Shown piece after piece: positions 9,448-62,869 of a DNA stretch of 64,000 bases. Positions within the stretch are counted from its first letter, which is position 1; each line of letters begins with the position of its first letter. Made by a program: the position numbers and the translations under genes. Below the pieces are notes generated by a model, which was given only the letters and a program-made list of their open reading frames with translations, did no database searches and was not told the DNA's origin. This stretch comes from Clostridia bacterium (lineage in GTDB: Bacteria; Bacillota; Clostridia; UMGS1883; UMGS1540), in assembly GCA_045590195.1 (NCBI GenBank), contig JAZNQN010000073.1, positions 1,098-65,097 of the forward strand, in the 5' to 3' direction.

Positions 9448-10224
9448 TCATAATTTACAAAAACTGCATCCGCGGCAATTTTCAACTTTACCTTCAAAAA
9501 TTCGTTTTATAACCAGTATAAGCTCAGGAGTTTTTGAAAACTTTTCGTTGTGAATTATAATCTTTTCAGGTGCAGCCGCTGTAAGGCAGCTGAGAAGCAA
9601 ATCGTCAAAACTCAGCTGTGTTATTTTTTTGTTTTCAGTAACGCTTTTTATGCATTCTTCGGTTATGTCGCGAAAATTTTCATTAAAAATTGCATATCCG
9701 CCAGAAGGCCAAACCTGTAAATTTATAACCTTTACCGCTGAAGGAAGTGTTTCGATATATGCTTTCAAAAGTTCAATCAAATCGTTATATTCTCTTACGG
9801 CTTCAAGCTTTTCTTCGTATTTATCAAGCTGTTTTTTCATATATTTTTTATATTCCGAAAGCCTGAAATTTACAAAGCCCTCAACAGAAATTGAATTGGA
9901 ATTTTCAAGAAATGTGCCAACATCTTTAAAAACAAACTCTTCCCCGTTTTTTAAAACGGAGTTAAAATCGGAGCAGATTATTTTTTTCTCCTCTTCACTG
10001 AAGGCATATTCGCCCGAATTATAAAACTGCCTGTAAAGCTCGGGCCCGTATTTTTTTTGAATTATTGATGAAATTGCGTGGCAAAGGCTTTTTTTAAGGT
10101 CTTCAATTTCTTCGCTTTTGCAGTAAAAAGTAATCATTTCGTCGCCGGAAATTGTGTTTTCATATTTTTGGTCAATTTCTTTTAAAATATCTTTTGTGTT
10201 GCCAAATACTGAAATCTGATGCAA
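9448..10224 (-). CDS. Hypothetical protein, possibly YtxC-like sporulation protein
   Basis: 258 aa with a TTG start 6 nt after GGAGGTG. The central VEGFVNFRLSEYKKY...EYNDLIELLKAYIE reminds me of the YtxC family. This is from memory only. Confidence 0.35.
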   Translation of the reverse strand: MHQISVFGNTKDILKEIDQKYENTISGDEMITFYCKSEEIEDLKKSLCHAISSIIQKKYGPELYRQFYNSGEYAFSEEEKKIICSDFNSVLKNGEEFVFKDVGTFLENSNSISVEGFVNFRLSEYKKYMKKQLDKYEEKLEAVREYNDLIELLKAYIETLPSAVKVINLQVWPSGGYAIFNENFRDITEECIKSVTENKKITQLSFDDLLLSCLTAAAPEKIIIHNEKFSKTPELILVIKRIFEGKVENCRGCSFCKL

Positions 10225-10241: not shown

Positions 10242-10973
10242 TCAGGCTATAATTATGGAGCCAACATCTTTCAAATCGTTTTCTCCGCTTTCTTTTAAAA
10301 CATAATTATACTTTTCCAAAAAACCACAAATTTTATCCTTTGAAGGATGATTTTTAAGGCTTCCGCAAACAAAAAACTCTTTTTTCGAAATTCTTCCCCC
10401 GCATCCGCCAAAAAAGCCATAGGAAAAACCCGGAAGCGAAACGCCCTGCCAGTCGATTAAAAGGCAGTCAATTCCTAAAGCGTCCATTGCTTTTTTTATG
10501 GAAGGGTCGGCAGTTATTGCCGCATTTTCTTCTACGGGTGCAACGGCGCATTTTGTGTAGCCCTGATTTACGTGTATAAGCTCTATTCCAAGGCTTTCAA
10601 AAAGCTTTTTTGCCTTTGGCGGAGTAAATTTCGTGTTGTGAAAGGCATATTTTCCCATCATCAGAATATTATATGCACAGTCATCCCCGTAAGTGCCGCC
10701 AATTTCAGCCTCGCCGCATATAACCTGCGCTCCCAAAGGCGTAAGCTTTTCGCTGTAATAATCAAAAACCTCCGGCGCACACAAAAAAATGCCGCGGCTT
10801 ATGTAGCAAATCTGAAGGTCGGCATGGCAGCGCATACTAACAGGCAAAGCGGGCACACATTTTGTTTTTATAAAATTTTTAAATCTGCCCCCAAGGGAAA
10901 CAGTTTCATCGCATATTAAAACTGTTCCGCCCTCGGGGAAATTTGGTTTTTGAAAATCTTTCATAAATTTCAC
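10242..10973 (-). CDS. Conserved hypothetical protein
   Basis: 243-aa ORF tightly packed between tsaD and the YtxC-like gene. No motif recognised. The start could instead be the ATG at 10964. Confidence 0.4.
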   Translation of the reverse strand: MKFMKDFQKPNFPEGGTVLICDETVSLGGRFKNFIKTKCVPALPVSMRCHADLQICYISRGIFLCAPEVFDYYSEKLTPLGAQVICGEAEIGGTYGDDCAYNILMMGKYAFHNTKFTPPKAKKLFESLGIELIHVNQGYTKCAVAPVEENAAITADPSIKKAMDALGIDCLLIDWQGVSLPGFSYGFFGGCGGRISKKEFFVCGSLKNHPSKDKICGFLEKYNYVLKESGENDLKDVGSIIIA

Positions 10974-12015: not shown

Positions 12016-12122
12016 GTTTTTTCTCCTTTAAAACATTTTATTAAATCTATTGTATAAAGACTGTATAATTTAGATGCCAACCCTTTAGGATAGTAGTTCA
12101 TATCAAGTTAGAACTAAAAAAA

Positions 12123-12449
12123 TTAAACAGACATAGCCATATTAAATAACAACCACGCCAAGGGGATTGTTAGTATAAACAAAATTATATACACTACATT
12201 ATTCCTTGTACTCATATCTTTTTCTTTCTTATAAAAAATCGAAATAATATTTAAAACAAATCCTAGTATACCTGATATTGCCAAACCACCCCAAAAAGCA
12301 TATGTAGTTAATAACATTGTAAATCTTACCAGAAATTCAGGCATATAATATGCTCTTCCGGGCGGAAGGAAAAAGCACAATACACTAACAACATTTAAAA
12401 TAATAACAGAAAATGAAATAACATCTAAAATAAAATGTTTCTTTTTCAT
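12123..12449 (-). CDS. Small membrane protein
   Basis: I moved the start to MKKKHFILDV because it follows an AAAGGAG RBS. Three hydrophobic helices. No family recognised. Confidence 0.4.
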   Translation of the reverse strand: MKKKHFILDVISFSVIILNVVSVLCFFLPPGRAYYMPEFLVRFTMLLTTYAFWGGLAISGILGFVLNIISIFYKKEKDMSTRNNVVYIILFILTIPLAWLLFNMAMSV

Positions 12450-12525
12450 CCTATTTACTCCTTTCAGCAAAATTCGACAATCTTACTATGATTTTGTCAA
12501 GTCAGGGACAAAAAAATATGTCGAT

Positions 12526-12689
12526 ATGTAAACTTCGTTTACCGGATATTTTTACTATTCGCAAAATCGATATGTTTTCTCTTCGTTCAAACTCGATATG
12601 ATATGAATTCTCGTTGCCGCAAGGCAACATATCGAGTCGTTTATGACATATCGAGAATTCGCAAGAATTCATATCGATGAAATCATTAT
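12526..12689. repeat. Array of six TCGATATG / CATATCGA octamers (3 forward, 3 reverse) with two GCAA-looped hairpins
   Basis: Forward copies at 12531, 12577 and 12603. Reverse copies at 12638, 12657 and 12680. Hairpins are TTGCC-GCAA-GGCAA (12624-12637) and GAATTC-GCAA-GAATTC (12665-12680). Confidence 0.7.
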
Positions 12690-12758
12690 ATCACACTTTT
12701 TCCAACATTTCTACATTTATTTTGCAAATTAATGGGAATATTTAAGGTATAGAAAAAC

Positions 12759-12787
12759 TTGACTATTTTGGCGGAATATAGTATTAT
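12759..12787 (+). promoter_or_regulatory. Sigma-A type promoter for the murJ-like operon
   Basis: TTGACT, 17-nt spacer, TATTAT, about 33 nt upstream of the GTG start. Confidence 0.45.
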
Positions 12788-12820
12788 ATTTTATATATAC
12801 CTTGAAAGGAGTGACGAGGC

Positions 12821-27342: not shown

Positions 27343-27370
27343 AAAAGAGAGGCAAAGCCTCTCTTTTTTT
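27341..27370. terminator. Bidirectional rho-independent terminator
   Basis: An A6 run, then GAGAGGC-AAA-GCCTCTC, then a T7 run. It lies between convergent genes. Confidence 0.75.
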
Positions 27371-28838
27371 ATAGCAATATACAAATAAGCCCGCCGCTGC
27401 CTTCGTTTATAATTTTTTCAAGTGTTTCCTGGAATTTTCCTCTCGCATCTTCAGGCATTTTTGAAAGCTTGCCCTGAAGGCCTTCGTTTACAAGCTCGTG
27501 AAGGCTTTTGCCAAACAAATTCGACTGCCATATTTTTTTGGGGTCTTCGTCAAATTCGTTAAGCAGATAATGTACAAGCTCTTCCGACTGCTTTTCTGTT
27601 CCAACAATTGGGCTTACTTCTGTTTCAATATCGGCTCTTATCATATGAATTGAAGGTGCGCTGGCGCGAAGGCGTACACCAAAGCGGCCGCCCTGTTTTA
27701 CAATTTCGGGCTCTTCTAAAGAAAGCTCGTCAATTGAAGGTGGAACAATGCCATACCCTGTTTCATAAACCTCGTGAAGGGCAAACTGAAGCCTGTCATA
27801 ATTTTTCTTGGCAACCGCCATTTCACGCATAACTGCCATAAGTTCGCCTTCATCGCTTATATCAAAGCCTGTATCATCGCTTAAAATTTTATAAAAAAGA
27901 CCTGGTGGTGTTAAAATACTTATTTTTACGCTGCCACTACCCAAATCTATGTTGTCAATTTGCGCTTTTTCAGCACATTCCAGCGAAGAAAGTTCATCTG
28001 CAAACAAAGAGGCATCTCTTATTTTTTTCACTTTATCGCTGCCTGCAATTGCTTTTTCAAAAATATCTTTTTTAATAAAGTGGTCGTCATCAAGCTTTGT
28101 AACCCATGGCGGCATATCAACAGAAATTTCTGAAAGCGGAAATTCAAAAAGTATGCTTTCGATAATGGAATTTATATCGCTGCCGCTTAAGTTTGCGCAG
28201 TCAACAGGCAAAACCTTTACGCCATATTTTTCTTCCATTTCGTTTTTAATGCGATTGCAGCGCTCGCCTTCGGGATTCATAGAATTAAGTAGCACAATAA
28301 ACGGCTTATTTATCTCACGAAGCTCTTTTATAACCCTTTCCTCGGCTTCTATGTAGCCTTCCCTCGAAATATCAGTAACAGAGCCATCGGTTGTAACTAC
28401 AAGGCCGATTGTTGAATGTTCCTTTATAACCTTACCTGTTCCTATTTCGGCGGCTTTTGCAAAAGGCATTTCCTCGTCAGACCATGGGGTTTTAACCATT
28501 CGGTGTCGCCCGTCTTCCATATCGCCCAGAGCACCTGAAACAATGTAACCAACGCAATCTATCATTCTCACGTTCATTTTTGCGTTTCCCGAAAGCTGAA
28601 TTTCTACTGCCTCGTTTGGAATAAATTTAGGCTCGGTTGTCATAATTGTTCGCCCTGCGGCGCTTTGAGGCATTTCGTCAACTGCGCGCATTCTTCCAAA
28701 TTCATCGGAAATGTTGGGAAGCACAAGCTTTTCCATAAATTTTTTAATAAATGTGGATTTTCCCGTTCGCACAGGGCCTACAACGCCAATGTAAATGTCG
28801 CCCCCGCATCGTTTTGCAATGTCTTCATATATGTTCAT
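27369..28838 (-). CDS. spoIVA: Stage IV sporulation protein A (spore-coat morphogenetic ATPase)
   Basis: 489 aa. MNIYEDIAKRCGGDIYIGVVGPVRTGKSTFIKKFME is the characteristic SpoIVA N-terminus with a Walker A motif. Confidence 0.95.
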   Translation of the reverse strand: MNIYEDIAKRCGGDIYIGVVGPVRTGKSTFIKKFMEKLVLPNISDEFGRMRAVDEMPQSAAGRTIMTTEPKFIPNEAVEIQLSGNAKMNVRMIDCVGYIVSGALGDMEDGRHRMVKTPWSDEEMPFAKAAEIGTGKVIKEHSTIGLVVTTDGSVTDISREGYIEAEERVIKELREINKPFIVLLNSMNPEGERCNRIKNEMEEKYGVKVLPVDCANLSGSDINSIIESILFEFPLSEISVDMPPWVTKLDDDHFIKKDIFEKAIAGSDKVKKIRDASLFADELSSLECAEKAQIDNIDLGSGSVKISILTPPGLFYKILSDDTGFDISDEGELMAVMREMAVAKKNYDRLQFALHEVYETGYGIVPPSIDELSLEEPEIVKQGGRFGVRLRASAPSIHMIRADIETEVSPIVGTEKQSEELVHYLLNEFDEDPKKIWQSNLFGKSLHELVNEGLQGKLSKMPEDARGKFQETLEKIINEGSGGLICILL

Positions 28839-31127: not shown

Positions 31128-31769
31128 TCATATTCTTATGACATAAAGATAAATCGAGAAAAAGTGTAAAATGCTTCCTCCGAGAACAAAAAAGTGCCAG
31201 ATGGAATGCATATATCTGAACTTTGTAAGTGCAAAAAATATAATTCCAAGGGTATAGGTAATGCCGCCAAGAAAAAGAAAAATTATTCCGCCGGGAGCTA
31301 CTGCCTGCATTAAATCATGCATACGAAAAATAATAAACCAGCCCATAACCACATAGCAAATGTGGCAGAAAATTGAATATTTTTCAAGGTTTATGGCGTT
31401 TAGAACTATGCCAAGTATTGCCGCCGACCATATTATTGCGGCAATTATAACCCCGCCCCTGTGAAGAAGGGAAATAAGTGCGTAAGGGGTATAAGTTCCC
31501 GCAATTAAAAGAAAAATTGATGCATGGTCGAAAATGCGGAAAACCGCCTTTGCCTTCTGGTTGGTAAGGGAGTGATAAAGGGTTGAGAAAACGTACATAA
31601 GCACAAGTGTTCCGCCGTAAATGCAGGCGCAAACAACATAAAGCACGTGCCCCGTAAAAGCCGCCGAAACAATCAAAAGCACCAGTGCCGCAACCGCCAA
31701 AAGCGCGCCAACACCGTGTGATACGGCGTTTACAATTTCTTCTCCAAGTGTGTAATTGGGTTTTGCCAC
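31128..31769 (-). CDS. Hemolysin III / PAQR family membrane protein
   Basis: 213 aa with 7 TM helices. N-terminal EEIVNAVSHGVG and HxxxH-type C-terminal histidines (MHSIWHFFV). Confidence 0.85.
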   Translation of the reverse strand: MAKPNYTLGEEIVNAVSHGVGALLAVAALVLLIVSAAFTGHVLYVVCACIYGGTLVLMYVFSTLYHSLTNQKAKAVFRIFDHASIFLLIAGTYTPYALISLLHRGGVIIAAIIWSAAILGIVLNAINLEKYSIFCHICYVVMGWFIIFRMHDLMQAVAPGGIIFLFLGGITYTLGIIFFALTKFRYMHSIWHFFVLGGSILHFFSIYLYVIRI

Positions 31770-32566
31770 TATTTTGCCTCCTTATGAGCTGTTTCTACAA
31801 TGCCTTCAATATCCACAAGTTCGTTTGTACACATATTATTATCATTTTTTACATAAAGCAAATATTCTATGTTGCCCTTGGGGCCTTTAATTGGCGAAAA
31901 ATCAATGTCGAGAACAGAAAAGCCATTATCTTGCGCCATCTCAAGCACATTGTTTATAACCTCAATATGAGTTTCGGCCTCTCTTACAACGCCGTTTTTG
32001 CCAACCTTTTCTTTGCCTGCTTCAAACTGAGGCTTTATAAGGCAAACTGCCTCGCCGCCTGCCTTTAAAAGCTTTTTCATTACAGGGAAAATAAGCTTAA
32101 GCGAAATAAAAGATACATCAACGCTTGCAAAATCAAGAGCCTCATCAAGCTGTTCTCTTTCAACATAGCGAATATTTGTGCGCTCCATATTTACAACGCG
32201 CTCGTCTGTTCTAAGCGACCAGGCAAGCTGACCATAGCCTACATCAACGCTGTAAACCTTTTTTGCGCCGTTTTGAAGCATACAGTCGGTAAAGCCGCCT
32301 GTTGAAGCGCCAATATCCATACAAACCTTGCCGGAAAGCTCTGCCCCGAAGCACTCCATTGCTTTTTCAAGCTTGAGGCCCCCTCGGCTAACATAGCGAA
32401 GGCCTTCTCTTACTTCAATTTCGTCTTTTTCGCTAACGCTCATACCCGCCTTTTCAGCCTTCTGGCCGTTTACGTAAACCATTCCGCTCATAATAAGCGC
32501 CTGGGCACGGCTTCTGCCTTCACAAAGCGAGTTTTCAGCCATATATACATCAAGCCTTACTTTCAT
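31769..32566 (-). CDS. tlyA: TlyA family 16S/23S rRNA (cytidine-2'-O)-methyltransferase
   Basis: 265 aa. N-terminal S4 domain (RLDVYMAEN...SRAQA), SAM motif (DIGASTGGFTD), and YSVDVGYGQLAW. Confidence 0.9.
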   Translation of the reverse strand: MKVRLDVYMAENSLCEGRSRAQALIMSGMVYVNGQKAEKAGMSVSEKDEIEVREGLRYVSRGGLKLEKAMECFGAELSGKVCMDIGASTGGFTDCMLQNGAKKVYSVDVGYGQLAWSLRTDERVVNMERTNIRYVEREQLDEALDFASVDVSFISLKLIFPVMKKLLKAGGEAVCLIKPQFEAGKEKVGKNGVVREAETHIEVINNVLEMAQDNGFSVLDIDFSPIKGPKGNIEYLLYVKNDNNMCTNELVDIEGIVETAHKEAK

Positions 32567-34394
32567 TTAATATCTCCTTGATTTCTTTTGATATACTTAT
32601 TTTGTCAAGCCCGTAAATTTCAAATATTTCTCCTCTGCCTGCGGCAGGAATAAATTCGTTCGGGAATGCTTTATTTATAACTTTAAATGTTTTGCCACTC
32701 TTTGCCGCCCGGGCTGCAATTTTTTCGCCAACGCCGCCCGAGAGCACATTATCCTCTATTGTTACCAAAACTCCCGTTTTTTCGGCGCTTTTGAAAATAG
32801 TTTCAAAATCTATTGGCGCGGCACATCTTAGGTCGATAACTTCGGCAGAAATGTTTTCTTCCGCAAGAATTTTAAAGCTTTCAAGAGCAGTATTTACCAT
32901 TGTTCCAAGGGCCGCAATTGTTACATCGCCGCCACTTGTCAAAGGTGCCGCTTTTCCAAACTCAAACTCGCCGCCAATATGTGGGGCTGAGCCTTTGGGG
33001 TATCTTACGGCTATGGGACCATTATGCTTTGAAACTGCATAAGAAAGCATTTTGTGTAGCATTTCGTTGTCGCAAGGGGCTAAAATTGCCATACCGGGAA
33101 TGTGACTTAAAAACGAAATATCAAAAACTCCCTGATGGGTTTCGCCATCTTCCCCTACAACGCCAGCTCTGTCAATAGCTAGTGTTACGTGTCTGCCTCC
33201 TATTGCAACGTCGTGAAGCAGGCTGTCGTATGCTCTTTGAAGAAACGAAGAATAAACCGAAACTACAGGTTTAAAGCCTTTTTGCGCCATTCCTGCCGCA
33301 AAGGTTATGGCGTGTGCCTCGGCAATTCCTGTATCAAAAAGCCTTTCTTTATACTGATTTTTAAAATTTTCAAGGCCGCATGATGCCACCATTGAAGGGC
33401 ATATCGAAACAACCTTTTCATCACTTTCAGCAAGAGATAGCATACTTTCGCCAAACTGCGCGGTAAAGGTTTTTCCGCCGCCCGAGGGTTTTCCCGAAAC
33501 ACCGTGGAAAAGATTTGGCGCATCTTCGGAGGGCTTATAGCCTTTGCCCTTTGTTGTGCAAACATGCACAATAACAGGCCCTTCTATTTTTTTGGCCTCT
33601 TCAAATGTACTGCAAAGAAGGGAAATATCGTGGCCATTTACAGGGCCTAAGTATTTATAGCCAAGCTGCTCAAAAACTACGCCCGGGGTTATAAGATATT
33701 TAATATACCCCTTTGCCCTTTTAACCGTTTTTTTAAGTACGCCGCCAAAAAGCGGAATTTTATCGAGAAAATTATTTGTTTCTCTTTTTGCGTTATAGTA
33801 AGAGGGTTTTACTCTCACGCGGTTTAAATACCTTGCAAAAGCACCCCTGTTTTTTTCAATTGACATCTGGTTATCGTTTAATATGATAATAACCTTTTTC
33901 TTAAGCTGAGAAATGCAGTTAAGCGCCTCCATAGGAAGGCCGCCTGAAAACGAGGCATCGCCAATTACGGCAACAACCTGTTTTTTATCGCTCTTTAAAT
34001 CTGCGCTGCAGGCAAAGCCAAGCGCTACTGAAAGCGATGTTCCGCTATGCCCTGTTTCAAAGGTATCATACTGGCTTTCTTCAGGCTTTGGAAAGCCGCT
34101 TAAGCCGCCCCTTTGGCGAAGAGTTGAAAACTTATCCCTTCTGCCGCAGATTATTTTGTGAACATAGCTTTGATGGCCAACATCGAATATAATATCGTCA
34201 TCAGGGGCAGAAAAAACTTTATGTAAAGCTATTGTCAGCTCCACAACGCCCAAGTTCGATGCAAGATGCCCGCCTGTTTTTAAAACTGTATCAATTAAAA
34301 ACTCCCTTATTTCGCCCGAAAGCTTATTAAGAGAGTTTAAATCAAGTTCTTTTAAATCTTCGGGGCTGTTTATTGATGACAAGATATCTGCCAT
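32550..34394 (-). CDS. dxs: 1-deoxy-D-xylulose-5-phosphate synthase
   Basis: GHLASNLGVVELT, GHQSY.HKI, TGHSGTSLS and GDASFSGGLPMEALN are canonical Dxs/TPP motifs. The ORF-track TTG start at 34451 has no RBS and overlaps the upstream gene. The ATG at 34394 (MADILSSINSPEDLKEL) matches usual Dxs N-termini. Confidence 0.95.
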   Translation of the reverse strand: MADILSSINSPEDLKELDLNSLNKLSGEIREFLIDTVLKTGGHLASNLGVVELTIALHKVFSAPDDDIIFDVGHQSYVHKIICGRRDKFSTLRQRGGLSGFPKPEESQYDTFETGHSGTSLSVALGFACSADLKSDKKQVVAVIGDASFSGGLPMEALNCISQLKKKVIIILNDNQMSIEKNRGAFARYLNRVRVKPSYYNAKRETNNFLDKIPLFGGVLKKTVKRAKGYIKYLITPGVVFEQLGYKYLGPVNGHDISLLCSTFEEAKKIEGPVIVHVCTTKGKGYKPSEDAPNLFHGVSGKPSGGGKTFTAQFGESMLSLAESDEKVVSICPSMVASCGLENFKNQYKERLFDTGIAEAHAITFAAGMAQKGFKPVVSVYSSFLQRAYDSLLHDVAIGGRHVTLAIDRAGVVGEDGETHQGVFDISFLSHIPGMAILAPCDNEMLHKMLSYAVSKHNGPIAVRYPKGSAPHIGGEFEFGKAAPLTSGGDVTIAALGTMVNTALESFKILAEENISAEVIDLRCAAPIDFETIFKSAEKTGVLVTIEDNVLSGGVGEKIAARAAKSGKTFKVINKAFPNEFIPAAGRGEIFEIYGLDKISISKEIKEILNESKA

Positions 34395-34413
34395 AAACTT
34401 ACCAACTTTCAAA

Positions 34414-35001
34414 TCATTTTTTTCTTCCGAAAAAGTAAATAATTTTTCCAACCATATAAATTATGCCGTTGCAATTATTTATTGCAAGGGTTTTGCCTGC
34501 CGCTTTGCCGCCAACGGTAAGGGCAGAAATCATTCCTGTAATTAAAAGGCTGGTTAAAAGAAAATTAAAGCCGTGCACCAGCACCACATCTGCCACAACA
34601 ACCGAGCCTACGCTACCGCTTACAATGCCGCATATATCGCCGATAACATCGTTACAAATGCTTGAAACCTTTTCGTTATGTTTAATAAGCTTTACCACGT
34701 AGTATGCGCCGGGCACCTTTCTCGATGCCATAGCGTGAAATGGAACATCAGAAGCCGTTGCCACCGCCATACCTATCATATCAAATAAAATACCAACCAG
34801 TATAATCGCAAACAAAACAATAAAGGCTACTGAAAGCGTAACATCCTGAAGGGTTGAGGCCGTAAAGGCGCTTATCAGAACCGACAGGATAAACGTTAAC
34901 AAAACCGTTATTAAAAGCCACGAAAAGCTGAATTTTTTATTACCTGTATGGTAACTTTTAACTCTTATTTTTTTCTTTTTAAAACTACTTGAGTCGTCCA
35001 T
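34414..35001 (-). CDS. oapA: OLE-associated protein A (OapA)-like four-TM membrane protein
   Basis: 195 aa with a basic N-terminus and four TM helices. It sits between a ~0.63-kb structured non-coding region and dxs-tlyA, which is the known position of oapA. Assigned by synteny and topology, not by alignment. Confidence 0.6.
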   Translation of the reverse strand: MDDSSSFKKKKIRVKSYHTGNKKFSFSWLLITVLLTFILSVLISAFTASTLQDVTLSVAFIVLFAIILVGILFDMIGMAVATASDVPFHAMASRKVPGAYYVVKLIKHNEKVSSICNDVIGDICGIVSGSVGSVVVADVVLVHGFNFLLTSLLITGMISALTVGGKAAGKTLAINNCNGIIYMVGKIIYFFGRKK

Positions 35002-35009
35002 TTAATTTC

Positions 35010-35637
35010 TCCAAAAAAATGTTGTGGGGGCGAAGCGAAAAGTAAATTTTACGGCATAGGTCCGAGTAGGTTTTCCCACAATAGTTCCTGCGCGTTGCCG
35101 CTCCAGGTGGTTTCCCATTAAACATTGCCCGGCAAAGCCGGCACCGGATCGCCACTTAGTCCGCACTGCAATCCTTTCCGCTCCTCTAGTGAACAGCCTA
35201 GGAGATTTCCTCAACAGTCAAACCGATTCTTAGCCTCTTTTGCAAATATAATTTCAAATGGCAATAGCCTTTTGTTTGTTGGCCGACAAACTAAGGCCTG
35301 CTCCATTATCCTTCATACCCACTCAAGGCAGGCTACTCTGCCCACAGCCACTTTGGCAGAAAATTCCGCCTCCGCACCGCGCGGCAGGTTTAATCCTAAG
35401 TCGTACTCCATACCGTTACCCGAAGGTAAGCAGACTAGGAGCACAAGCATAGGTCTCCACGGAAAAGGGGTCACCTCCGCATGCCATTGCGGCCCGCCCC
35501 TAAACCTTAACCCCCAGCACAAACCCCCGACTGGGCGTCGAAAGCCTGCACAAGGAACTTCATCGATGTGCCCTTTAACGGATTTTTAGGCCCGTCCTGG
35601 GAACCGGCATCCTGACTAGGATACTGCGCCACCCGCT
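35010..35637 (-). ncRNA. ole: OLE (ornate, large, extremophilic) RNA
   Basis: ORF-free and G+C-enriched, with many complementary segments. It is co-oriented with and directly upstream of the oapA-like gene, dxs and tlyA. It has its own TTGCAT-17-TATAAT promoter. The ends are approximate. Confidence 0.75.
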
Positions 35638-35643
35638 AGGGTA

Positions 35644-35672
35644 ATTATAGCATATTGCATTTTGAAATGCAA
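35644..35672 (-). promoter_or_regulatory. Sigma-A type promoter driving the OLE RNA
   Basis: On the minus strand: TTGCAT (comp 35667-35672), 17-nt spacer, TATAAT (comp 35644-35649). The -35 hexamer lies inside the small palindrome TTGCATTTCAAAATGCAA. Confidence 0.55.
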
Positions 35673-35731
35673 TAACTATTTATTTTAAATTTACACTGTG
35701 TTCATATTAAATCGTGCCACGGCAATATTGC

Positions 35732-36586
35732 TTACACCCAGCCAATCATATTAAAATATGCATCCTGCGAAGGCGAAACGGTATCGCCGTTTAAATATTT
35801 AACCATAACGTGTGGTTTAATTTTTATATCAATATTTTTTTCGCAAAGAAGACCTGAAAGCGAAAAATCGCTTCGAATTACAAATTTTTTAACCTGTGCC
35901 GAGTGGCTTTTTATAAAACTGATTGCCTTTTTTGCGCCTTCAATATCAGAGAAAATAAGCTCCTGTGCAAAAAAGGTATCGTTTTGAATAAAGTAATACA
36001 TCTGAGCGCCATCTACCAGAAAACGGTGGCCGCCTTCTTCTTTTGTGTCGCTTAAAAATTCATCTTCACATTTTTTGTCCCTTACAAGATAAAGGGGCTT
36101 GTTTTTACAGAAATTTTTATAAATTTCGCCTGCATCGCCGCCCTCTTTAAAAGGCGTATTAAATTTTGGCAGAGACTTAATTTCGCCCGAGTATTCGTGC
36201 AGAAACGATGCACACTCAAGGCCATATTTTCTGTAAAAAGAAAAGTTGAAGGGAATAAGGAAAAACGCCTCATAGCCTTCTTTTTTAAGCTTTTCCTCCA
36301 GAAAAGCAAAAAGGGCAGTAATGTTTCCGCCACCGCGATGCATGGGGTGGGTTGAAACGCCGCAAACATATGCCGCCTTAATTTCTTTGCCGCCCTTTAC
36401 AATGTTGTAGGGAAAAAACATAAGGTCAGAGGTAATTTTCCCCTCTTCAAAAACTGCAAGGGTATTCTCTTTTTTATAATATTTACTGAAGAAATACTCA
36501 ATAAAGGCATCGCTGTCGCCAAAGCAGTATTTCCACAAGAATTTTACATCGTTTAAATCTTTGTCAGAAGGGTGTGCTATTTTCAT
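35732..36586 (-). CDS. GNAT family N-acetyltransferase (Eis-like two-domain architecture)
   Basis: 284 aa. Acetyl-CoA motif VSTHPMHRGGGNITALF. The length and C-terminal extension resemble Eis/SCP-fused GNATs. Confidence 0.6.
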   Translation of the reverse strand: MKIAHPSDKDLNDVKFLWKYCFGDSDAFIEYFFSKYYKKENTLAVFEEGKITSDLMFFPYNIVKGGKEIKAAYVCGVSTHPMHRGGGNITALFAFLEEKLKKEGYEAFFLIPFNFSFYRKYGLECASFLHEYSGEIKSLPKFNTPFKEGGDAGEIYKNFCKNKPLYLVRDKKCEDEFLSDTKEEGGHRFLVDGAQMYYFIQNDTFFAQELIFSDIEGAKKAISFIKSHSAQVKKFVIRSDFSLSGLLCEKNIDIKIKPHVMVKYLNGDTVSPSQDAYFNMIGWV

Positions 36587-36594
36587 AATTCCTC

Positions 36595-37467
36595 CTATTT
36601 TTCAACCGCAACCCATTTTTCAACCATATGGCATGGCCTGTACGACTCTTTTGCGCGACGAAGGCCTTCAATTCCCATATCCTCTTCGCGGTTTATAAAT
36701 TTTGTATTTCCAAATCGGTTTTTTGCAAACAAATTATTTATTGCGGCGTAGCTGCCTTTTACCTGGGTATCGGCTTTTTCAAGATGAATAACCGCCGTAT
36801 GGCAGGATAACATTTCCCCCGCCGTTACGGCACAAAGGTTGCCATTTGCATAAAGCATTGCCCCTGAAAGGCCTAAGGCAAAAAAGCCATCAAACAGCTT
36901 CTGCATTGCGGAAAGCTCTTCATCGTGCTGGTCGCGTTCAGTTATGGATTTTATGCAAAACTGCCTTGCCTCATCAATGTTTTCGGGCATAATTTCTTTG
37001 TATTCCCATTTATAGCTATTTAAAAATGTGTTCAGGTGATTTCGCTTGCCGTGAAGCTTTTTACCCGACAAATTTATAAGAGAATCAGTTTCGTAAACGT
37101 ATTCTGCGTTATCCCTGTCATTGCGGAAAGAAAATGTATCGCCAAAGTTTTCTTTCAAAAACAGGCTCTCCTCAGGGGAAAGATGGGCAAAAACGCATTT
37201 GCAGCCGCCAATATGTGAATCGGCAATAATTTTTTCAACTGCCGCTTTTTTATCCCCTTCGCCGCAGGGGAAAATATAATAGCTGCAATCGTGGCTGTGG
37301 CGGCTTTTAATGAAAAGAAAGCCATCTTCCTCCGCAAAGCTTATGTTATAGCTTTCCTGCCATATATACATATTTGTAAAGCTTTGATGAGCGCCAACGC
37401 ATTTTTCGGGCGTATAATATTTTTTTATAAGAGCCATATCCGAAAGCTCAATTTTTTTGAAATTCAT
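36595..37467 (-). CDS. DUF2156 domain protein (related to the C-terminal domain of aminoacyl-phosphatidylglycerol synthases)
   Basis: I moved the start to MNFKKIELSD (RBS GGTGA) to remove the overlap with tmk. The family assignment is from memory of the N-terminal pattern. Confidence 0.5.
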   Translation of the reverse strand: MNFKKIELSDMALIKKYYTPEKCVGAHQSFTNMYIWQESYNISFAEEDGFLFIKSRHSHDCSYYIFPCGEGDKKAAVEKIIADSHIGGCKCVFAHLSPEESLFLKENFGDTFSFRNDRDNAEYVYETDSLINLSGKKLHGKRNHLNTFLNSYKWEYKEIMPENIDEARQFCIKSITERDQHDEELSAMQKLFDGFFALGLSGAMLYANGNLCAVTAGEMLSCHTAVIHLEKADTQVKGSYAAINNLFAKNRFGNTKFINREEDMGIEGLRRAKESYRPCHMVEKWVAVEK

Positions 37468-37477
37468 AGTTTCACCG

Positions 37478-38134
37478 TTATAACTCAAGTGCCAAAATAA
37501 TTTCCTCTGTAATTTTTTCAATAGGTTTTACGCTGTCTTCTGCGCACTTAATAGTTTTAAAATTAAATTTATCTGCAACATATTTTGCATTTTCATAGGC
37601 CTTTTCAAGATGGTTTGCATCTTTTTCGTGAATATCTTTTTCAGCCTCGTTTGTAATTTTGTTGGCTCTGTTTGCCATAAGCTCCCTTGCAAATTTTGGG
37701 GGCATATCAAGAAACAAAACCTTGTCAGGCTTTGGAAGGCCAAGCTTTTCATATTCAAAATCGTAAATCCAGCTGAGAAAAGCATCTTTTTCGGCAATGC
37801 TTTCAAGTTTTGCCGCCTGATGAATCATATTGCTGGTAACATATCTGTCAGCAAGAATAATTTTTCCGCTTTCGAGATATTTTCCCCATTTTGTTTTATA
37901 TGATGCATAGCGGTCAACCGCGTAAAAGCTTGATGCGGCATAAGGCGAAACAGCATCGGCCTCTTCGCCGAACTCGCCCCCTAAATACATTTTAACCAAA
38001 GCAGACGACTGACTTTCATAATCAGGAAACGAAATTTTCACTACGTCAAGCCCTTTGTTTTTTAAATAGTTGTATAGGGCTTCGCACTGGGTTTGTTTTC
38101 CGCTGGCGTCTACCCCTTCAAAAACGATAAGCAT
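37478..38134 (-). CDS. tmk: dTMP (thymidylate) kinase
   Basis: 218 aa. P-loop FEGVDASGKQTQ and a DRY motif (ADRYVTS). The start overlaps the thyX stop (TAATG). Confidence 0.9.
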   Translation of the reverse strand: MLIVFEGVDASGKQTQCEALYNYLKNKGLDVVKISFPDYESQSSALVKMYLGGEFGEEADAVSPYAASSFYAVDRYASYKTKWGKYLESGKIILADRYVTSNMIHQAAKLESIAEKDAFLSWIYDFEYEKLGLPKPDKVLFLDMPPKFARELMANRANKITNEAEKDIHEKDANHLEKAYENAKYVADKFNFKTIKCAEDSVKPIEKITEEIILALEL

Positions 38135-48933: not shown

Positions 48934-49584
48934 TTGAAAATTAAAAATTTTTCATTTTTATGTGCTTTTATTCTGGTATCAGTTTATATATTATTTACCC
49001 CTCCAGCCGTAAATACTCTTTCAAAAAAAGGCTCAACAGGCGACGAAGTTATAAAAATTCAGCAGCGGTTGTCTGCCTGGGGCTATTATAGCGGCAAAAT
49101 TGACGGAATTTACGGCTCTGCCACCGTAGCGGCAGTTAAAAAATTCCAGAAAAAACATAGCCTTACTGCCGACGGGGTTGCAGGGGCCGCCACTTTGGAA
49201 AAGCTTGGCCTGCCTTCAGGCTCTACAGGAAACAGCGAAACTGTAAACCTTCTTGCAAGGGCAATAAACGGCGAAGCAAGAGGCGAGCCATATACAGGCC
49301 AGGTTGCAGTTGGGGCGGTTATTTTAAACAGAGTTTCTCATCCCTCCTTCCCTGGCACAATTGCGGGAGTTATTTATCAGCCCGGTGCATTTACCGCCGT
49401 TTCTGACGGGCAAATTCATGCACAAATGGAAGAAAGCTGTATTCGTGCTGCAAAAGACGCCTTAAACGGCTGGGACCCGTCAGGCGGCGCAATTTATTAC
49501 TACAACCCCAAAACCGCAACAAATAAATGGATTAGAACACGCCCTGTTATTGCCACAATAGGCAAACACGTTTTTTGTAATTAG
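48934..49584 (+). CDS. sleB: SleB-like spore cortex-lytic / cell-wall hydrolase with a PG-binding domain
   Basis: 216 aa with a TTG start and a signal anchor. It has a PG_binding_1 domain (GDEVIKIQQRLSAWGYYSGKIDGIYG) and a Hydrolase_2 core (ARAINGEARGEPYTGQVAVGAVILNR...VIYQPGAFT). Confidence 0.7.
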   Translation: MKIKNFSFLCAFILVSVYILFTPPAVNTLSKKGSTGDEVIKIQQRLSAWGYYSGKIDGIYGSATVAAVKKFQKKHSLTADGVAGAATLEKLGLPSGSTGNSETVNLLARAINGEARGEPYTGQVAVGAVILNRVSHPSFPGTIAGVIYQPGAFTAVSDGQIHAQMEESCIRAAKDALNGWDPSGGAIYYYNPKTATNKWIRTRPVIATIGKHVFCN

Positions 49585-59297: not shown

Positions 59298-62200
59298 CTA
59301 CTTAAGTGTACCTTTTGCTTCATAAAGTGGCGTTACACCATCCCATATAAACAGTTTATAATTTGTTGCTTTGCTACAACTGTAATTTACAGTTTTCATT
59401 TCACTGCTTTCCTCAAACCTTCGCGCCTTAACATCTCTCATAATGTTTTCATCGTCATAAAAAGCAACAAATACCCTTCTTGCCTCATCTGCACAATAAT
59501 TTATTGTAACAGTGCCATTCTCTACGCTTTCTTCCATATAGAATCCTAGTTTTTCAGCCGTTGGCGTTCCTATTGCAACTTTATAAGTTGCCGCTGCCTT
59601 CTTGCTTTCATATACTTGGTTTGTAAGAGTTTCTGATGTATCTAAAGTCACTTTTGAAAAATCAATTGGATTTCCAGAAGCATCAAAAAACGAAATATAC
59701 ATATTTATATTTTTATCTGAACAATAGTTTAACGATACAGTATTTCCTTCCCCTGTGCTTTCTTCTTCCATATAAAATCCAAGCTTTTCTGCTGTGGGCG
59801 TTCCTATTGCAATTTTATATGTTGCCGCTGCCTTCTTGCTTTCATATACTTGGTTTGTAAGAGTTTCTGATGTATCTAAAGTCACTTTTGAAAAATCAAT
59901 TGGATTTCCAGAAGCATCAAAAAACGAAATATACATATTTATATTTTTATCCGAACAATAGTTTATTGATACCTCATTTCCGCTTCCCGTACTTTCTTCT
60001 TCCATATAAAAGCCAAGCTTTGCAGCCGTTGGCGTTCCTATAGCAATTCTATGTGTTGCAGCTCTCGTTTCGCCTTTGCATTCTGCCGTAGTAAGCTTTT
60101 CTGAAGCTTTAAGCAAAACTTTTTCAAAACCTATTGCGTTTCCAAAAGTATCAAAATACGAAATATAAGCCTGTGTATCTTTTTCAGAACAGTATTCTAT
60201 TTCCGCAAGATTTCCTTCTCCTTCAACAGGAGTGCTCATATAAAATCCAATTGCAATTCTATATGTTGCAGCTCTCATTTCGCCTTTGCATTCTGCCATA
60301 GTAAGCTTTTCGGAAGCTTTAAGCAAAACTTTTTCAAAACCTATTGCGTTTCCAAAAGTATCAAAATACGAAATATAAGCCTGTGTATCTTCGGCAGAGC
60401 AGTATTCTATCTCCGTCAAATTGTCCTCGCCCGAAACTGCTGTACTCATATAAAATCCGAGTTTTTCTGCCACAGGTTCTCCAAAACAAGCTACATACGA
60501 GGTTGCGTTTTTGTTGCCTGTATATGTAACACTAGTAAACTTTTCAGAAACAGGCAATGTAACCTTTTTAAAATCAACCGCTTCGCCAAAGGTATCAAGA
60601 TATGTAATATATAAATCTGTTTCCGAATTTGCACAATAACTAATTTCAGCCGTATTTCCTTCTCCCTCTAAACCTTCAATGTAAAAGTTAAGTTTCGTAG
60701 CTGTAGGCTCTCCAATGCTTAAAAAGCATTCTGTCGCATCGTCATTTGAAAATTCTGTCTTTGTAAAGCTTTCGGTGCCTTCTAATATAGCCTTCTCAAA
60801 ACCAACGGGATTTCCGTCATCAAAATATGAAATATACGCATCTATATCTCTGTCTGAATAATGCTCAATTGTAGCCTTGTTTCCGTCTATCTGATATATA
60901 TGGAACAAATTGTCTTTATAATACGCATTGTTTATAAGCGGAATTTCAAATTTTGACTGATTTGTGCCGACATATGCATATGCAAATGTACCATCTTTTT
61001 TGTGAGCAAGGGCATACATATCTGAACCGTAAATTGCATCTACCTCGCCCCAGGCATCAACTGCCGCCTTCTGTGCAGTATAAGCTTTTCCCGATGAATA
61101 ACTTGCATAATGGCAAACTCCGTCATAATCAAGCCCTATTGTATAGTTATTTCCGCAGGCAACCTCTTTTATGTTTGTCCACGAAGACAAATCTCCTGAA
61201 AAATAAACTCCCTTTGTATTTTTCCCTGCCGAAACACAAGTTCCGTCTGCTTTAAGGCCTACTATGTGGTTTTGTCCTGCAAATATTTTTACTATTCCTG
61301 TCCAGGCAGAAACATCGCTTAAATCAGTTGCTGTATTATACGATTCAACATAAACTTTTCCTTCTTCATCAAGCGCCGCCGTAAAAAACTTTCCGCCTGC
61401 AATATCTACAATATTTTTATAGCTTTTTACATTTTTACTGCTATCGTAACTGCTGTAAAGCCTTTTGTCCCATCTCAAAGCACCAATAAGTCGGTTATCT
61501 TTTCCGGTAACATCAGTTGTATCAGGGTCAATCAGCCAGTAATACGATTCAGCCTTTTCAACACCTTTCCAGGTATCAATTCCTGCTTCTGTTTTCTCTG
61601 CTTCCTGTAAATTTGTTAATACGGTACCGTCATTGGTTACGCCTAAAAAGTAATCACTTATCTCATAAGCTGAAGAATACGATTTAGTAACAGAAAGATT
61701 CTTTGCTCCTTTAAAATCTTCCAACGAAGTTTTTCCTATTGTAGCAACGCTTCTGTCAGGAAGCAAAACGCCAATAGTTCTCGGTCCCGTAACAATCTGA
61801 GGAAGCGAAACTTCATAATTAAGAGGAACCATTTCAAGGTCAAATGTGTCAAGCGTTTCAGTAAACTCATTTATTGCAGTTTCATTCATAATATGCTGGA
61901 CCGAAAGATCGCTTTTCACTATTGTAGCAAAATAATTATTTCTGTATTTAAAAATTGTCACATCTTTAACGTCTTCAAAAGCAATTAACTCATCAACAAA
62001 TTCCTGCGACCATTCTACATCCAGCCCGATATATGTTCCGTCTGTAATAATTTTATCGTCATGTGTAATTGCAACAACAACGCCAACATCGTTAACTCCG
62101 GGAATAATTTTTATGTCTTTAATATCTTCTTCCCAACTGCCACAAAGCCATTCACTACCGGTTTCGGCCCCGTCAGCATCTTTTGTGTACACTCCAAGTC

Positions 62201-62804
62201 CGGTATGATAAAGCTTGCCGTCAAAATCTTTTAAAACAGTTAAATTTGCACCTGCATAAATACTGTCAATATTCGAAAATGCATCTACCGATTCTGCTGA
62301 TGTAGTGCCACTTCCGAAACAGTTCCCATCATAGTCAACAGCAACAATATGTTTTTTACCACATGCAATTTTTTTAATGTTCTGCCAGTTGCTTGTATCT
62401 ATGCTGCCACTGTCACCTGCAATAAAAACATTTCCGTTTGTGTCAAGAGCAGCAATAAAATTGTCGCCGGCAGCTATTTGTGTTATGTTTTCAAACTCTG
62501 ATGTATCTATTTCCGAGCCATCTTCACATTTTCCTGCAACAACCACCTTGCCATTATCAAGCAAAGCAGCAGAAAAATATTTACCAGCGCATACTGCAAC
62601 TGCATTTTTCCAGCCGTATGTCATCAACTGACCATATGTATTGTCTCCTGCTGAAAAAACTCTTCCGTATTGATTAAGTGCAACTATGCTGCTATGCCCT
62701 GCATTAACCATAACATCTACAGGTGCCATAACTTCTGCTGAAGCATTCGGAATGCAAAACACAATTAAAAGTATTAAACTTAAAAAAATTGCCGTTTTTT
62801 TCAT
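59298..62804 (-). CDS. Large secreted RCC1-repeat (beta-propeller) protein with seven C-terminal tandem ~78-aa modules
   Basis: The start is at MKKTAIFLSL (RBS AGGAGG) with signal peptide ...IPNASA. RCC1-like blades include GDNTYGQL, GDNFIAALDTNGNVFIAG, GKKHIVAVDYDGNCFGSG, GQNHIVGLKADGTCVSAG and GNNYTIGLDYDGVCH. No recognisable wall anchor. Confidence 0.7.
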   Translation of the reverse strand: MKKTAIFLSLILLIVFCIPNASAEVMAPVDVMVNAGHSSIVALNQYGRVFSAGDNTYGQLMTYGWKNAVAVCAGKYFSAALLDNGKVVVAGKCEDGSEIDTSEFENITQIAAGDNFIAALDTNGNVFIAGDSGSIDTSNWQNIKKIACGKKHIVAVDYDGNCFGSGTTSAESVDAFSNIDSIYAGANLTVLKDFDGKLYHTGLGVYTKDADGAETGSEWLCGSWEEDIKDIKIIPGVNDVGVVVAITHDDKIITDGTYIGLDVEWSQEFVDELIAFEDVKDVTIFKYRNNYFATIVKSDLSVQHIMNETAINEFTETLDTFDLEMVPLNYEVSLPQIVTGPRTIGVLLPDRSVATIGKTSLEDFKGAKNLSVTKSYSSAYEISDYFLGVTNDGTVLTNLQEAEKTEAGIDTWKGVEKAESYYWLIDPDTTDVTGKDNRLIGALRWDKRLYSSYDSSKNVKSYKNIVDIAGGKFFTAALDEEGKVYVESYNTATDLSDVSAWTGIVKIFAGQNHIVGLKADGTCVSAGKNTKGVYFSGDLSSWTNIKEVACGNNYTIGLDYDGVCHYASYSSGKAYTAQKAAVDAWGEVDAIYGSDMYALAHKKDGTFAYAYVGTNQSKFEIPLINNAYYKDNLFHIYQIDGNKATIEHYSDRDIDAYISYFDDGNPVGFEKAILEGTESFTKTEFSNDDATECFLSIGEPTATKLNFYIEGLEGEGNTAEISYCANSETDLYITYLDTFGEAVDFKKVTLPVSEKFTSVTYTGNKNATSYVACFGEPVAEKLGFYMSTAVSGEDNLTEIEYCSAEDTQAYISYFDTFGNAIGFEKVLLKASEKLTMAECKGEMRAATYRIAIGFYMSTPVEGEGNLAEIEYCSEKDTQAYISYFDTFGNAIGFEKVLLKASEKLTTAECKGETRAATHRIAIGTPTAAKLGFYMEEESTGSGNEVSINYCSDKNINMYISFFDASGNPIDFSKVTLDTSETLTNQVYESKKAAATYKIAIGTPTAEKLGFYMEEESTGEGNTVSLNYCSDKNINMYISFFDASGNPIDFSKVTLDTSETLTNQVYESKKAAATYKVAIGTPTAEKLGFYMEESVENGTVTINYCADEARRVFVAFYDDENIMRDVKARRFEESSEMKTVNYSCSKATNYKLFIWDGVTPLYEAKGTLK
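59301..60875 (-). repeat. In-frame tandem repeat region encoding seven ~70-78-aa modules
   Basis: Module pattern: x-[IL]-x-Y-C-x5-Y-I-[ST]-[YF]-[FL]-D-x2-G-x3-F-x-K-[VA]...A-[IV]-G-T-P-T-A-x-K-L-G-F-Y-M. DNA copies at 59586-59716 and 59820-59950 are identical over 131 nt. Copies at 60102-60180 and 60312-60390 are identical over 79 nt. Confidence 0.85.
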
Positions 62805-62869
62805 ACTTCCTCCTATAAATTCCAAAAATCGGCAACACAAAGGTATGTGCTGCCGATATTCTGAAAGTT

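Follow-up and report, generated by a model that had tools for sequence, protein, structure and literature searches.

OLE (ornate, large, extremophilic) RNA is a large structured bacterial RNA that acts at the membrane with OapA, the product of a neighboring gene, and its hosts typically are anaerobes or extremophiles. [quoted passage not shown] The ole gene of Bacillus halodurans possesses its own proximal promoter and specifies an abundant RNA with a half-life of ~3 h, and alcohol and cold phenotypes have been described for OLE in this species (PMC3413148). OapA is related to MpfA (PMC11332333), and a model has been presented in which the RNA is dimeric and associated with the membrane (PMC12286853, PMC12265935). 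In addition to full-length OLE, which corresponds to Rfam family RF01071, two variants have been distinguished. Variant 1, which is of the TANB77 type, has shortened P7, P8, and P9 stems and often lacks the nucleotides at the end of P13 to which OapB binds. Variant 2, which is of the RF39 type, is devoid of P7 and P8. The clades that harbor variants 1 and 2 are reduced-genome gut symbionts (PMC11332333).

The DNA analyzed here is a 64-kb stretch, termed the window, in which a gap at positions 35002-35731 lies between the ORF for a GNAT/Eis-like acetyltransferase (35732-36586, minus strand) and an ORF of 195 aa. The original prediction placed an OLE RNA gene in this gap, and correctly bounded it by the end of the GNAT ORF at 35732 and the start of the 195-aa ORF at 35001. 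The window was scanned with all 4,227 Rfam families and OLE was the sole hit. The RF01071 covariance model matched the minus strand at 35648..35011 with 449.5 bits (gathering score 50; E 1e-128), and the match was untruncated and took in the whole model (positions 1-616 of 616), which upholds the proposed identification. The ole gene is of the full-length type and occupies 638 nt according to the Rfam model, compared to a median of 625 nt at 107 loci among the matches listed. Full-length OLE copies at 12 other loci produced 434-554 bits in the same search, and the window copy is typical as its score falls within this range. The locus resembles full-length OLE (RF01071, PMC11332333) in its end-to-end match, in possession of its own predicted promoter, and in the downstream order oapA-dxs-tlyA. 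It differs in that the distal part of P13, comprising the inner 3 bp, a bulge, and a GNRA loop, is replaced by a UUU loop, in that P7 plus P8 are somewhat longer, and in the GNAT/Eis-like upstream neighbor. The element is an ordinary member of an already known RNA family, and we consider with high confidence that the gap encodes a functional, full-length OLE RNA with the mechanism of the model species.

The open frames within the gap are short or implausible: four on the minus strand, of 56, 70, 69, and 41 aa, and two on the plus strand, of 154 and 64 aa. A protein-coding function would be exercised either by the 154-aa plus-strand frame at 35125-35589, which is indeed open in the window, or by one of the short minus-strand ORFs. 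However, the 154-aa ORF has TTG as its first codon, and its translation is a string rich in Pro, Arg, Ser, and Gly. This candidate was rejected: several stop codons and frame-shifting indels interrupt the frame in two close relatives of the locus, L121 and L125. Moreover, substitutions over the frame are distributed among the three codon positions as 12/12/14 and 13/21/19 in L121 and L125, respectively, with no periodicity. The probability that the gap is protein-coding is negligible, and the initial view that it contains no credible ORF is sustained in that no conserved frame was found within it. The composition of the region also is as first described, with a G+C content of 0.50-0.55 over 35100-35700 vs. 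0.35-0.40 in the AT-rich flanks. The two complementary segments that had been noted both were located: GGGGCGGGCCGCAAUGGCAUGCGGAGGUGACCCC at 35467-35500 is the complementary segment of stem P6/P6.1, and CCGGUGCCGGCUUUGCCGGGC at 35127-35147 is that of the P13 region.

The secondary structure of the RNA was examined by projecting the Rfam structure onto the window sequence. Both residues are present for 151 consensus pairs, of which 138 are canonical. The other 13 depart from canonical pairing in the model alignment, and several of them, in the variable distal portions of P7 and P9, look like shifts in alignment register. Pairs also were counted in an alignment of 51 OLE sequences, consisting of the window, two close relatives, and 48 sequences from reference genomes, with the structure projected from the window row. 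Standard pairs filled 83.1% of cells vs. 40-47% when the 3′ partners were slid by 1-3 columns, and the covariation score was 0.468 vs. 0.10-0.16 for the slid structures. Changes on both sides were evident at 118 of the 151 pairs in these sequences. The observed pairing and covariation values were reached by none of 500 shuffles. Compensatory changes also distinguish the OLE sequences of the close relatives L121, L123, L125, and L126, whose OapA proteins are 77-90% identical. In P7, CUCC/GGAG is altered to CCUC/GAGG and UUACC/GGUAA to UCGCC/GGCGA, and in P14, CCUG/CAGG is altered to CCCG/CGGG.

From P4 through to the long-range 3′ helices, the window RNA has the full set of main stems, and it retains the sequences of junctions J4a/5 and J6/7. 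The P4 hairpin (35577..35596, minus strand) bears the A-rich loop CUAAAAAU that is invariant in all 51 aligned OLE sequences; this loop forms a dimer bridge in cryo-EM structures (PMC12286853, PMC12265935). The adjoining J4a/5 strand AAAGGGCACAUCGAUGAAG (35558..35576, minus strand) is identical to the family consensus and corresponds to the strand that, in the model organism, forms the kink turn recognized by OapC/bS21 (PMC9723947, PMC12286853). The tip of P5.1 (35528..35540, minus strand) has a GCCCA loop and is the kissing-loop partner of P6.1, the interaction being between P5.1 of one RNA and P6.1 of the second (PMC12265935). P6/P6.1 (35467..35500, minus strand) has the loop CAAUGGCAU, whose GGC is complementary to GCC of the P5.1 loop, such that GCCCA of the latter can pair with UGGC of the P6.1 loop. 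The tip of P9 (35275..35290, minus strand) is a palindromic GGCC loop that corresponds to the symmetric kissing-loop dimer bridge, a position at which GGCC, GAUC, and AGCU covary in the family (PMC12286853). Every loop implicated in RNA dimerization is kept in the window, namely the A-rich loop of P4, the P5.1/P6.1 complementarity, and the GGCC palindrome of P9.

A sigma-A promoter is predicted at 35644..35672 on the minus strand by reading of the sequence. It consists of a -35 element TTGCAT (35672-35667), a 17-nt spacer, and an extended -10 element TGcTATAAT (35652-35644). The TGnTATAAT motif is kept in L121 and L125, and the sequence farther upstream diverges. An automatic consensus scan of promoters did not report the proposed ole promoter, in which the -35 hexamer matches at only three of six positions; the assignment rests on the perfect extended -10 element and its conservation. 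By analogy with B. halodurans, the 5′ end of OLE probably is near 35637, from which the distance to the oapA ATG at 35001 is ~636 nt, close to the ~630 nt that was anticipated. No intrinsic terminator was predicted in the interval 34300-36000, and so none between ole and oapA. A ribosome-binding site for oapA, GGAG, is present at 35009..35012 (minus strand), 7 nt before the ATG. It is overlapped by the 3′ tail of the Rfam OLE match, which ends 9 nt before this start codon. Read-through into oapA is likely because of the lack of a predicted terminator and the overlap of the ribosome-binding site with the OLE match. Transcription from the extended -10 element is suggested to begin near 35637 and would be able to continue into oapA.

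These features also would suit an element that acts mainly in cis, as a long 5′ untranslated region or riboswitch-like leader of oapA-dxs-tlyA, instead of as a free-standing particle RNA. Apart from the coverage of the ribosome-binding site and the uninterrupted path into oapA, oapA has no recognizable promoter other than that upstream of ole. However, OLE of B. halodurans is a discrete, very stable, and abundant RNA that complements in trans from a distal locus (PMC3413148), and OLE binds OapA, OapB, and OapC (PMC3413148, PMC7936274, PMC9723947). The ~600 nt with conserved tertiary loops, including the intermolecular dimer bridges, furthermore extend far beyond the needs of a leader. Cis-acting and particle roles are not mutually exclusive; that the former is the main one we judge to be highly improbable. 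A particle RNA whose transcript may run on into oapA is the preferred reading.

Reference loci for comparison were retrieved with a conserved OLE 19-mer, AAAGGGCACATCGATGAAG, which identified at least 120 loci; H. halodurans was not among the matches listed. At two of the loci listed, L034 from Streptomyces and L118 from TA06, the 19-mer occurs without OLE. Among the matches listed, an oapA homolog is directly downstream of OLE on the same strand at 97 of the 100 loci for which enough sequence is available. The next gene is dxs at 53 of 63 and then tlyA at 46 of 49 of these reference loci, such that ole-oapA-dxs-tlyA is the commonest arrangement among those listed. The window conforms to this arrangement and to the gene order that was originally proposed. 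The oapA gene (34414..35001, minus strand) is followed by dxs for 1-deoxy-D-xylulose-5-phosphate synthase (32550..34451, minus strand; TIGR00204, 681 bits) and tlyA for a TlyA-family rRNA 2′-O-methyltransferase (31769..32566, minus strand; TIGR00478, 274 bits). The true start of dxs probably is TTG at 34412 or ATG at 34394, and not the first TTG of the ORF at 34451. A gene of the TrhA/hemolysin-III family and a MurT-like ligase gene are located farther downstream. On the other side of ole are the GNAT gene, a gene for an LPG_synthase_C (DUF2156) protein, tmk, thyX, and tagA. A GNAT/Eis-like gene is beside ole at none of 126 comparison loci among the matches listed, and L121 has proA/proB where the window has the GNAT gene. 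Thus, the upstream side is outside the conserved unit.

The product of oapA in the window is 195 aa long, is predicted to span the membrane with four helices, and carries a DxxxD motif at D118/D122. It matched no family at Pfam or NCBIfam thresholds, collections in which OapA has no curated model, and the case for membership therefore is built on gene order, motif, and fold. When the protein sequence was compared with the PDB, only a chance match emerged (E 0.62); to our knowledge no OapA structure has been deposited there. The database family to which the protein belongs includes more than 7,700 proteins, mostly unnamed and of ~190-200 aa, some of which have weak matches to PF01595 (DUF21/CNNM) or carry the label 'CorB'. 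Homologs for comparison were drawn from the OLE-adjacent proteins of 96 other genomes, many of them Bacillaceae. The window protein has only 31-44% identity with OapA homologs from the sampled reference genomes, and it keeps 32 of the 35 most conserved positions of the family. The DxxxD motif is the feature by which OapA is distinguished from CNNM domains (PMC11332333). It reads D118-V-I-G-D122 in the window, and neither aspartate varies among the 97 OLE-adjacent proteins or the 62 database homologs that were compared.

Hydropathy and an AlphaFold2 model (mean pLDDT 77, pTM 0.67) both delineate four long helices at residues 26-51, 56-82, 109-143, and 147-175. When the model was compared with the PDB using Foldseek, the top six matches all were membrane domains of CNNM/CorB/CorC proteins (7M1T, 7M1U, 7CFF, 7CFG). 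The probabilities were 0.99-1.00 and the TM-scores 0.46-0.57, with modest E-values of which the best was 7e-3. Matches beyond the top six had probabilities of ≤0.25. The solved structure most similar to H. halodurans OapA is CorB 7M1U (PMC11332333), a resemblance that is reproduced here. The window protein further resembles H. halodurans OapA in its length of ~195 aa, four predicted transmembrane helices, basic N-terminal tail, DxxxD motif, CNNM-like predicted fold, and position directly after ole. The fold of the membrane domain is predicted to be common to the window protein and to MpfA/CorB/CorC. In contrast with the latter, the window protein has four instead of three transmembrane helices, possesses the DxxxD motif, and lacks CBS-pair or CorC/HlyC domains. 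Overall the 195-aa protein behaves as OapA in synteny, motif, topology, and predicted fold, in accord with the assignment made when the gene was recognized only as encoding a four-helix membrane protein of ~200 aa.

The principal departure of the window RNA from other full-length OLE is in P13. In H. halodurans the GNRA loop and bulge of this hairpin form the primary OapB site (PMC7936274). The window has instead a truncated hairpin, GCCGGC-UUU-GCCGGGC (35127..35142, minus strand), in which eight model positions are deleted: the GNRA tetraloop and the single-nucleotide bulge are absent, the inner 3 bp are gone, and the loop is UUU. The length of the P13 segment was measured between two conserved anchors in 110 sequences, with the reference loci taken from the matches listed. 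The segment measures 47 nt in the window, and its length is 47-48 nt when all six close relatives (L121-L126) are included, the P13 loops of this group being UUU, UAU, or AAUU. In comparison, the segment is 55-58 nt at 101 of the 103 reference loci listed and 75 nt at one. The sole shortened P13 among these reference loci is that of L063 (51 nt), the remaining 102 of 103 not being shortened. For 85 of the 110 sequences, the hairpin loop that comes first in the minimum-energy fold is a GNRA tetraloop. The P13 GNRA hairpin is highly conserved, yet is not family-defining for OLE. The P14/P14.1 hairpin (35087..35107, minus strand) keeps its GCAA (GNRA) tetraloop in the model alignment, and in the model organism OapB binds the P14.1 GNRA loop weakly, as a secondary site (PMC7936274).

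Loss of the end of P13 is reminiscent of variant 1, but the P7, P8, and P9 stems that are shortened in variant 1 are of full size in the window, and the P7 and P8 stems that are missing from variant 2 both are present (PMC11332333). Specifically, P7 plus P8 span 117 nt, which is at the 85th percentile of 106 loci, and P9 spans 83 nt vs. a median of 86 nt, in each case among the matches listed. As neither P7-P9 nor the total length is reduced, the window OLE is not variant 1 or variant 2. Moreover, the window carries sporulation genes, unlike the reduced-genome symbionts that typify these variants (PMC11332333). OLE variants without the OapB site and clades without OapB have been described (PMC11332333), and the P13 loss therefore represents a minor departure of a kind already on record.

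The truncation also might be viewed as the first sign that this OLE is a remnant in decay or no longer functional. Its 449.5 bits fall toward the lower end of the sampled range, and rare apparently defective ole genes are on record (PMC11332333). However, the defective cases that have been described are in organisms without OapA, and oapA in the window is intact with its hallmark residues kept. In addition, the same form of P13 is common to all six relatives that were found, the compensatory changes in relatives indicate purifying selection on the structure, and the universally conserved loops and junctions all are intact. Decay of the element is thus very improbable, and the gene instead is viewed as a functional ole with an altered P13.

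A more specific proposal is that the clade possesses a full-size OLE from which the OapB docking site in particular has been lost, with P7-P9, the dimer bridges, and OapA kept. This proposal is tentative and we regard it as somewhat doubtful. None of OapB, OapC, or MpfA was found among ORFs of at least 120 aa in the 64-kb window, although OapB and OapC are shorter than 120 aa and the window is a small part of the genome, so that this outcome has no bearing on whether they are present. From the truncated P13 we predict that OapB would be absent or dispensable in this clade, or else restricted to the GCAA loop of P14.1.

The host belongs to the spore-forming Clostridia, well inside the known range of OLE. 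The window encodes SpoIVA, YtxC, a SleB-like hydrolase, ThyX, PFOR subunits, and glycolytic enzymes, and the nearest OLE relatives among the matches listed are from metagenome-assembled genomes of Clostridia and Congzhengia. The suggestion in the original prediction that the locus represents a new host and context was not substantiated, as the organism is a spore-forming member of the Clostridia and the gene order is the commonest one.

A mechanism can be proposed in which function at the locus, including expression, dimerization, OapA binding, and phenotype, is transferred by analogy from the model species. Transcription would start at the conserved extended -10 promoter and may run on into oapA. 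The RNA product would be abundant and stable, as judged by experiments in Halalkalibacterium halodurans and Clostridium species. By the model-species precedent, in which OapA binds OLE RNA in a 2:1 ratio, OapA dimers would anchor an OLE homodimer at the membrane or within it, partly across the bilayer in the current model (PMC11332333, PMC12265935, PMC3413148). OapA would act as a relative of the CNNM/MpfA Mg2+ transporters without their cytoplasmic regulatory domains, and the sensing and regulatory role of these protein domains in MpfA probably is supplied by OLE RNA. In this hypothesis OLE would be the regulatory partner of the Mg2+ transporter-like OapA. The ribonucleoprotein may help the cell to withstand cold, poor carbon sources, and exposure to short-chain alcohols or to an excess of Mg2+. 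In this clade the particle is predicted to assemble without OapB docked at P13, since the P13 tip is missing in the lineage.

The locus in itself adds little to the family, as OLE is detected here by the standard Rfam model, within a known host range, and in the commonest gene neighborhood. The consequence for annotation is that 35011-35648 (minus strand) should be designated ole and 34414-35001 (minus strand) designated oapA instead of 'hypothetical protein'. The presence of a full-size OLE with a deleted OapB hairpin supports the published view that OapA is indispensable and OapB is accessory. If the genomes of this clade lack oapB, they would provide a naturally occurring OLE particle that is complete except for OapB, and would do so in a spore-former that is free-living. 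If true, this would help to define the minimal core of the particle outside of reduced-genome symbionts, and would show whether RNA or another protein replaces OapB in locking the P12.2-P15 four-way junction.

The P13 hairpin of the OLE RNA is located at window positions 35127-35142 on the minus strand and is 8-9 nt short relative to 102 of the 103 reference loci listed. The GNRA tetraloop and bulge, which form the primary OapB-binding site in H. halodurans (PMC7936274), are missing from the window hairpin. This loss is common to all six close relatives of the window ole locus (L121-L126), and the only other short P13 in the sample occurs in a rabbit-gut Clostridia metagenome-assembled genome (L063).

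The strand opposite OLE harbors a 154-aa open reading frame with a TTG start (35125-35589, plus strand), which gene finders would likely call as a hypothetical protein; a 90-aa gene is called within the OLE region of the relative L126. The 154-aa frame was considered as a gene and rejected as it shows no conservation, and its annotation is unwarranted. Downstream of OLE, the longest dxs frame (32550-34451, minus strand) also begins with TTG and shares its first 38 nt with the 3' end of oapA, and the dxs HMM match starts from residue 24 of this frame. The dxs start directly follows the oapA stop codon in relatives L121 and L126, and overlaps oapA in L123 as in the window. The window dxs start is likely to be either TTG at 34412 or ATG at 34394.

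Among the 120 reference loci listed for the conserved OLE 19-mer AAAGGGCACATCGATGAAG, full-length OLE was found in two assemblies that carry Proteobacteria labels, namely a bin labeled Succinivibrio sp. (L079, 448 bits) and Pseudomonas sp. ISL-84 (L100, 503 bits). Matches beyond Bacillota also were noted in the published survey of OLE distribution, in which horizontal transfer or assembly errors were proposed (PMC11332333). Contamination or mis-binning is suspected for L079 and L100. The 19-mer is present in Streptomyces sp. (L034) and candidate division TA06 (L118) where OLE is absent by nhmmer and Rfam searches, which is consistent with the few chance matches expected in 596 Gb.

The window includes spoIVA (27369-28838), ytxC (9448-10224) and genes for a SleB-like cell-wall hydrolase (48934-49584) and a DUF6873 protein (10242-10973), and the host therefore is an endospore-forming Clostridia bacterium. 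No Rfam family besides OLE, including tRNA and rRNA, was found across the 64-kb window. The 0.8-kb interval between tsaD and murJ (12016-12820), which has no Rfam match, possesses a single plausible small frame for a hydrophobic 115-aa product (12123-12470, minus strand) and probably comprises a small membrane protein gene and a divergent promoter region. Adjoining dprA is a gene for a 1,180-aa protein (59298-62840, minus strand) with N-terminal RCC1-like repeats and no other recognized domain.

DUF2156 is the C-terminal domain of aminoacyl-phosphatidylglycerol synthases. A gene encoding this domain (LPG_synthase_C; 36595-37521, minus strand) is positioned two genes upstream of ole. At both Congzhengia loci, a homolog of this window gene (36% identity) is situated directly 3' of oapA where it replaces dxs (L019, 4566-5414; L107, 6411-7295). 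A function in membrane-lipid modification may be recurrently associated with the OLE locus.
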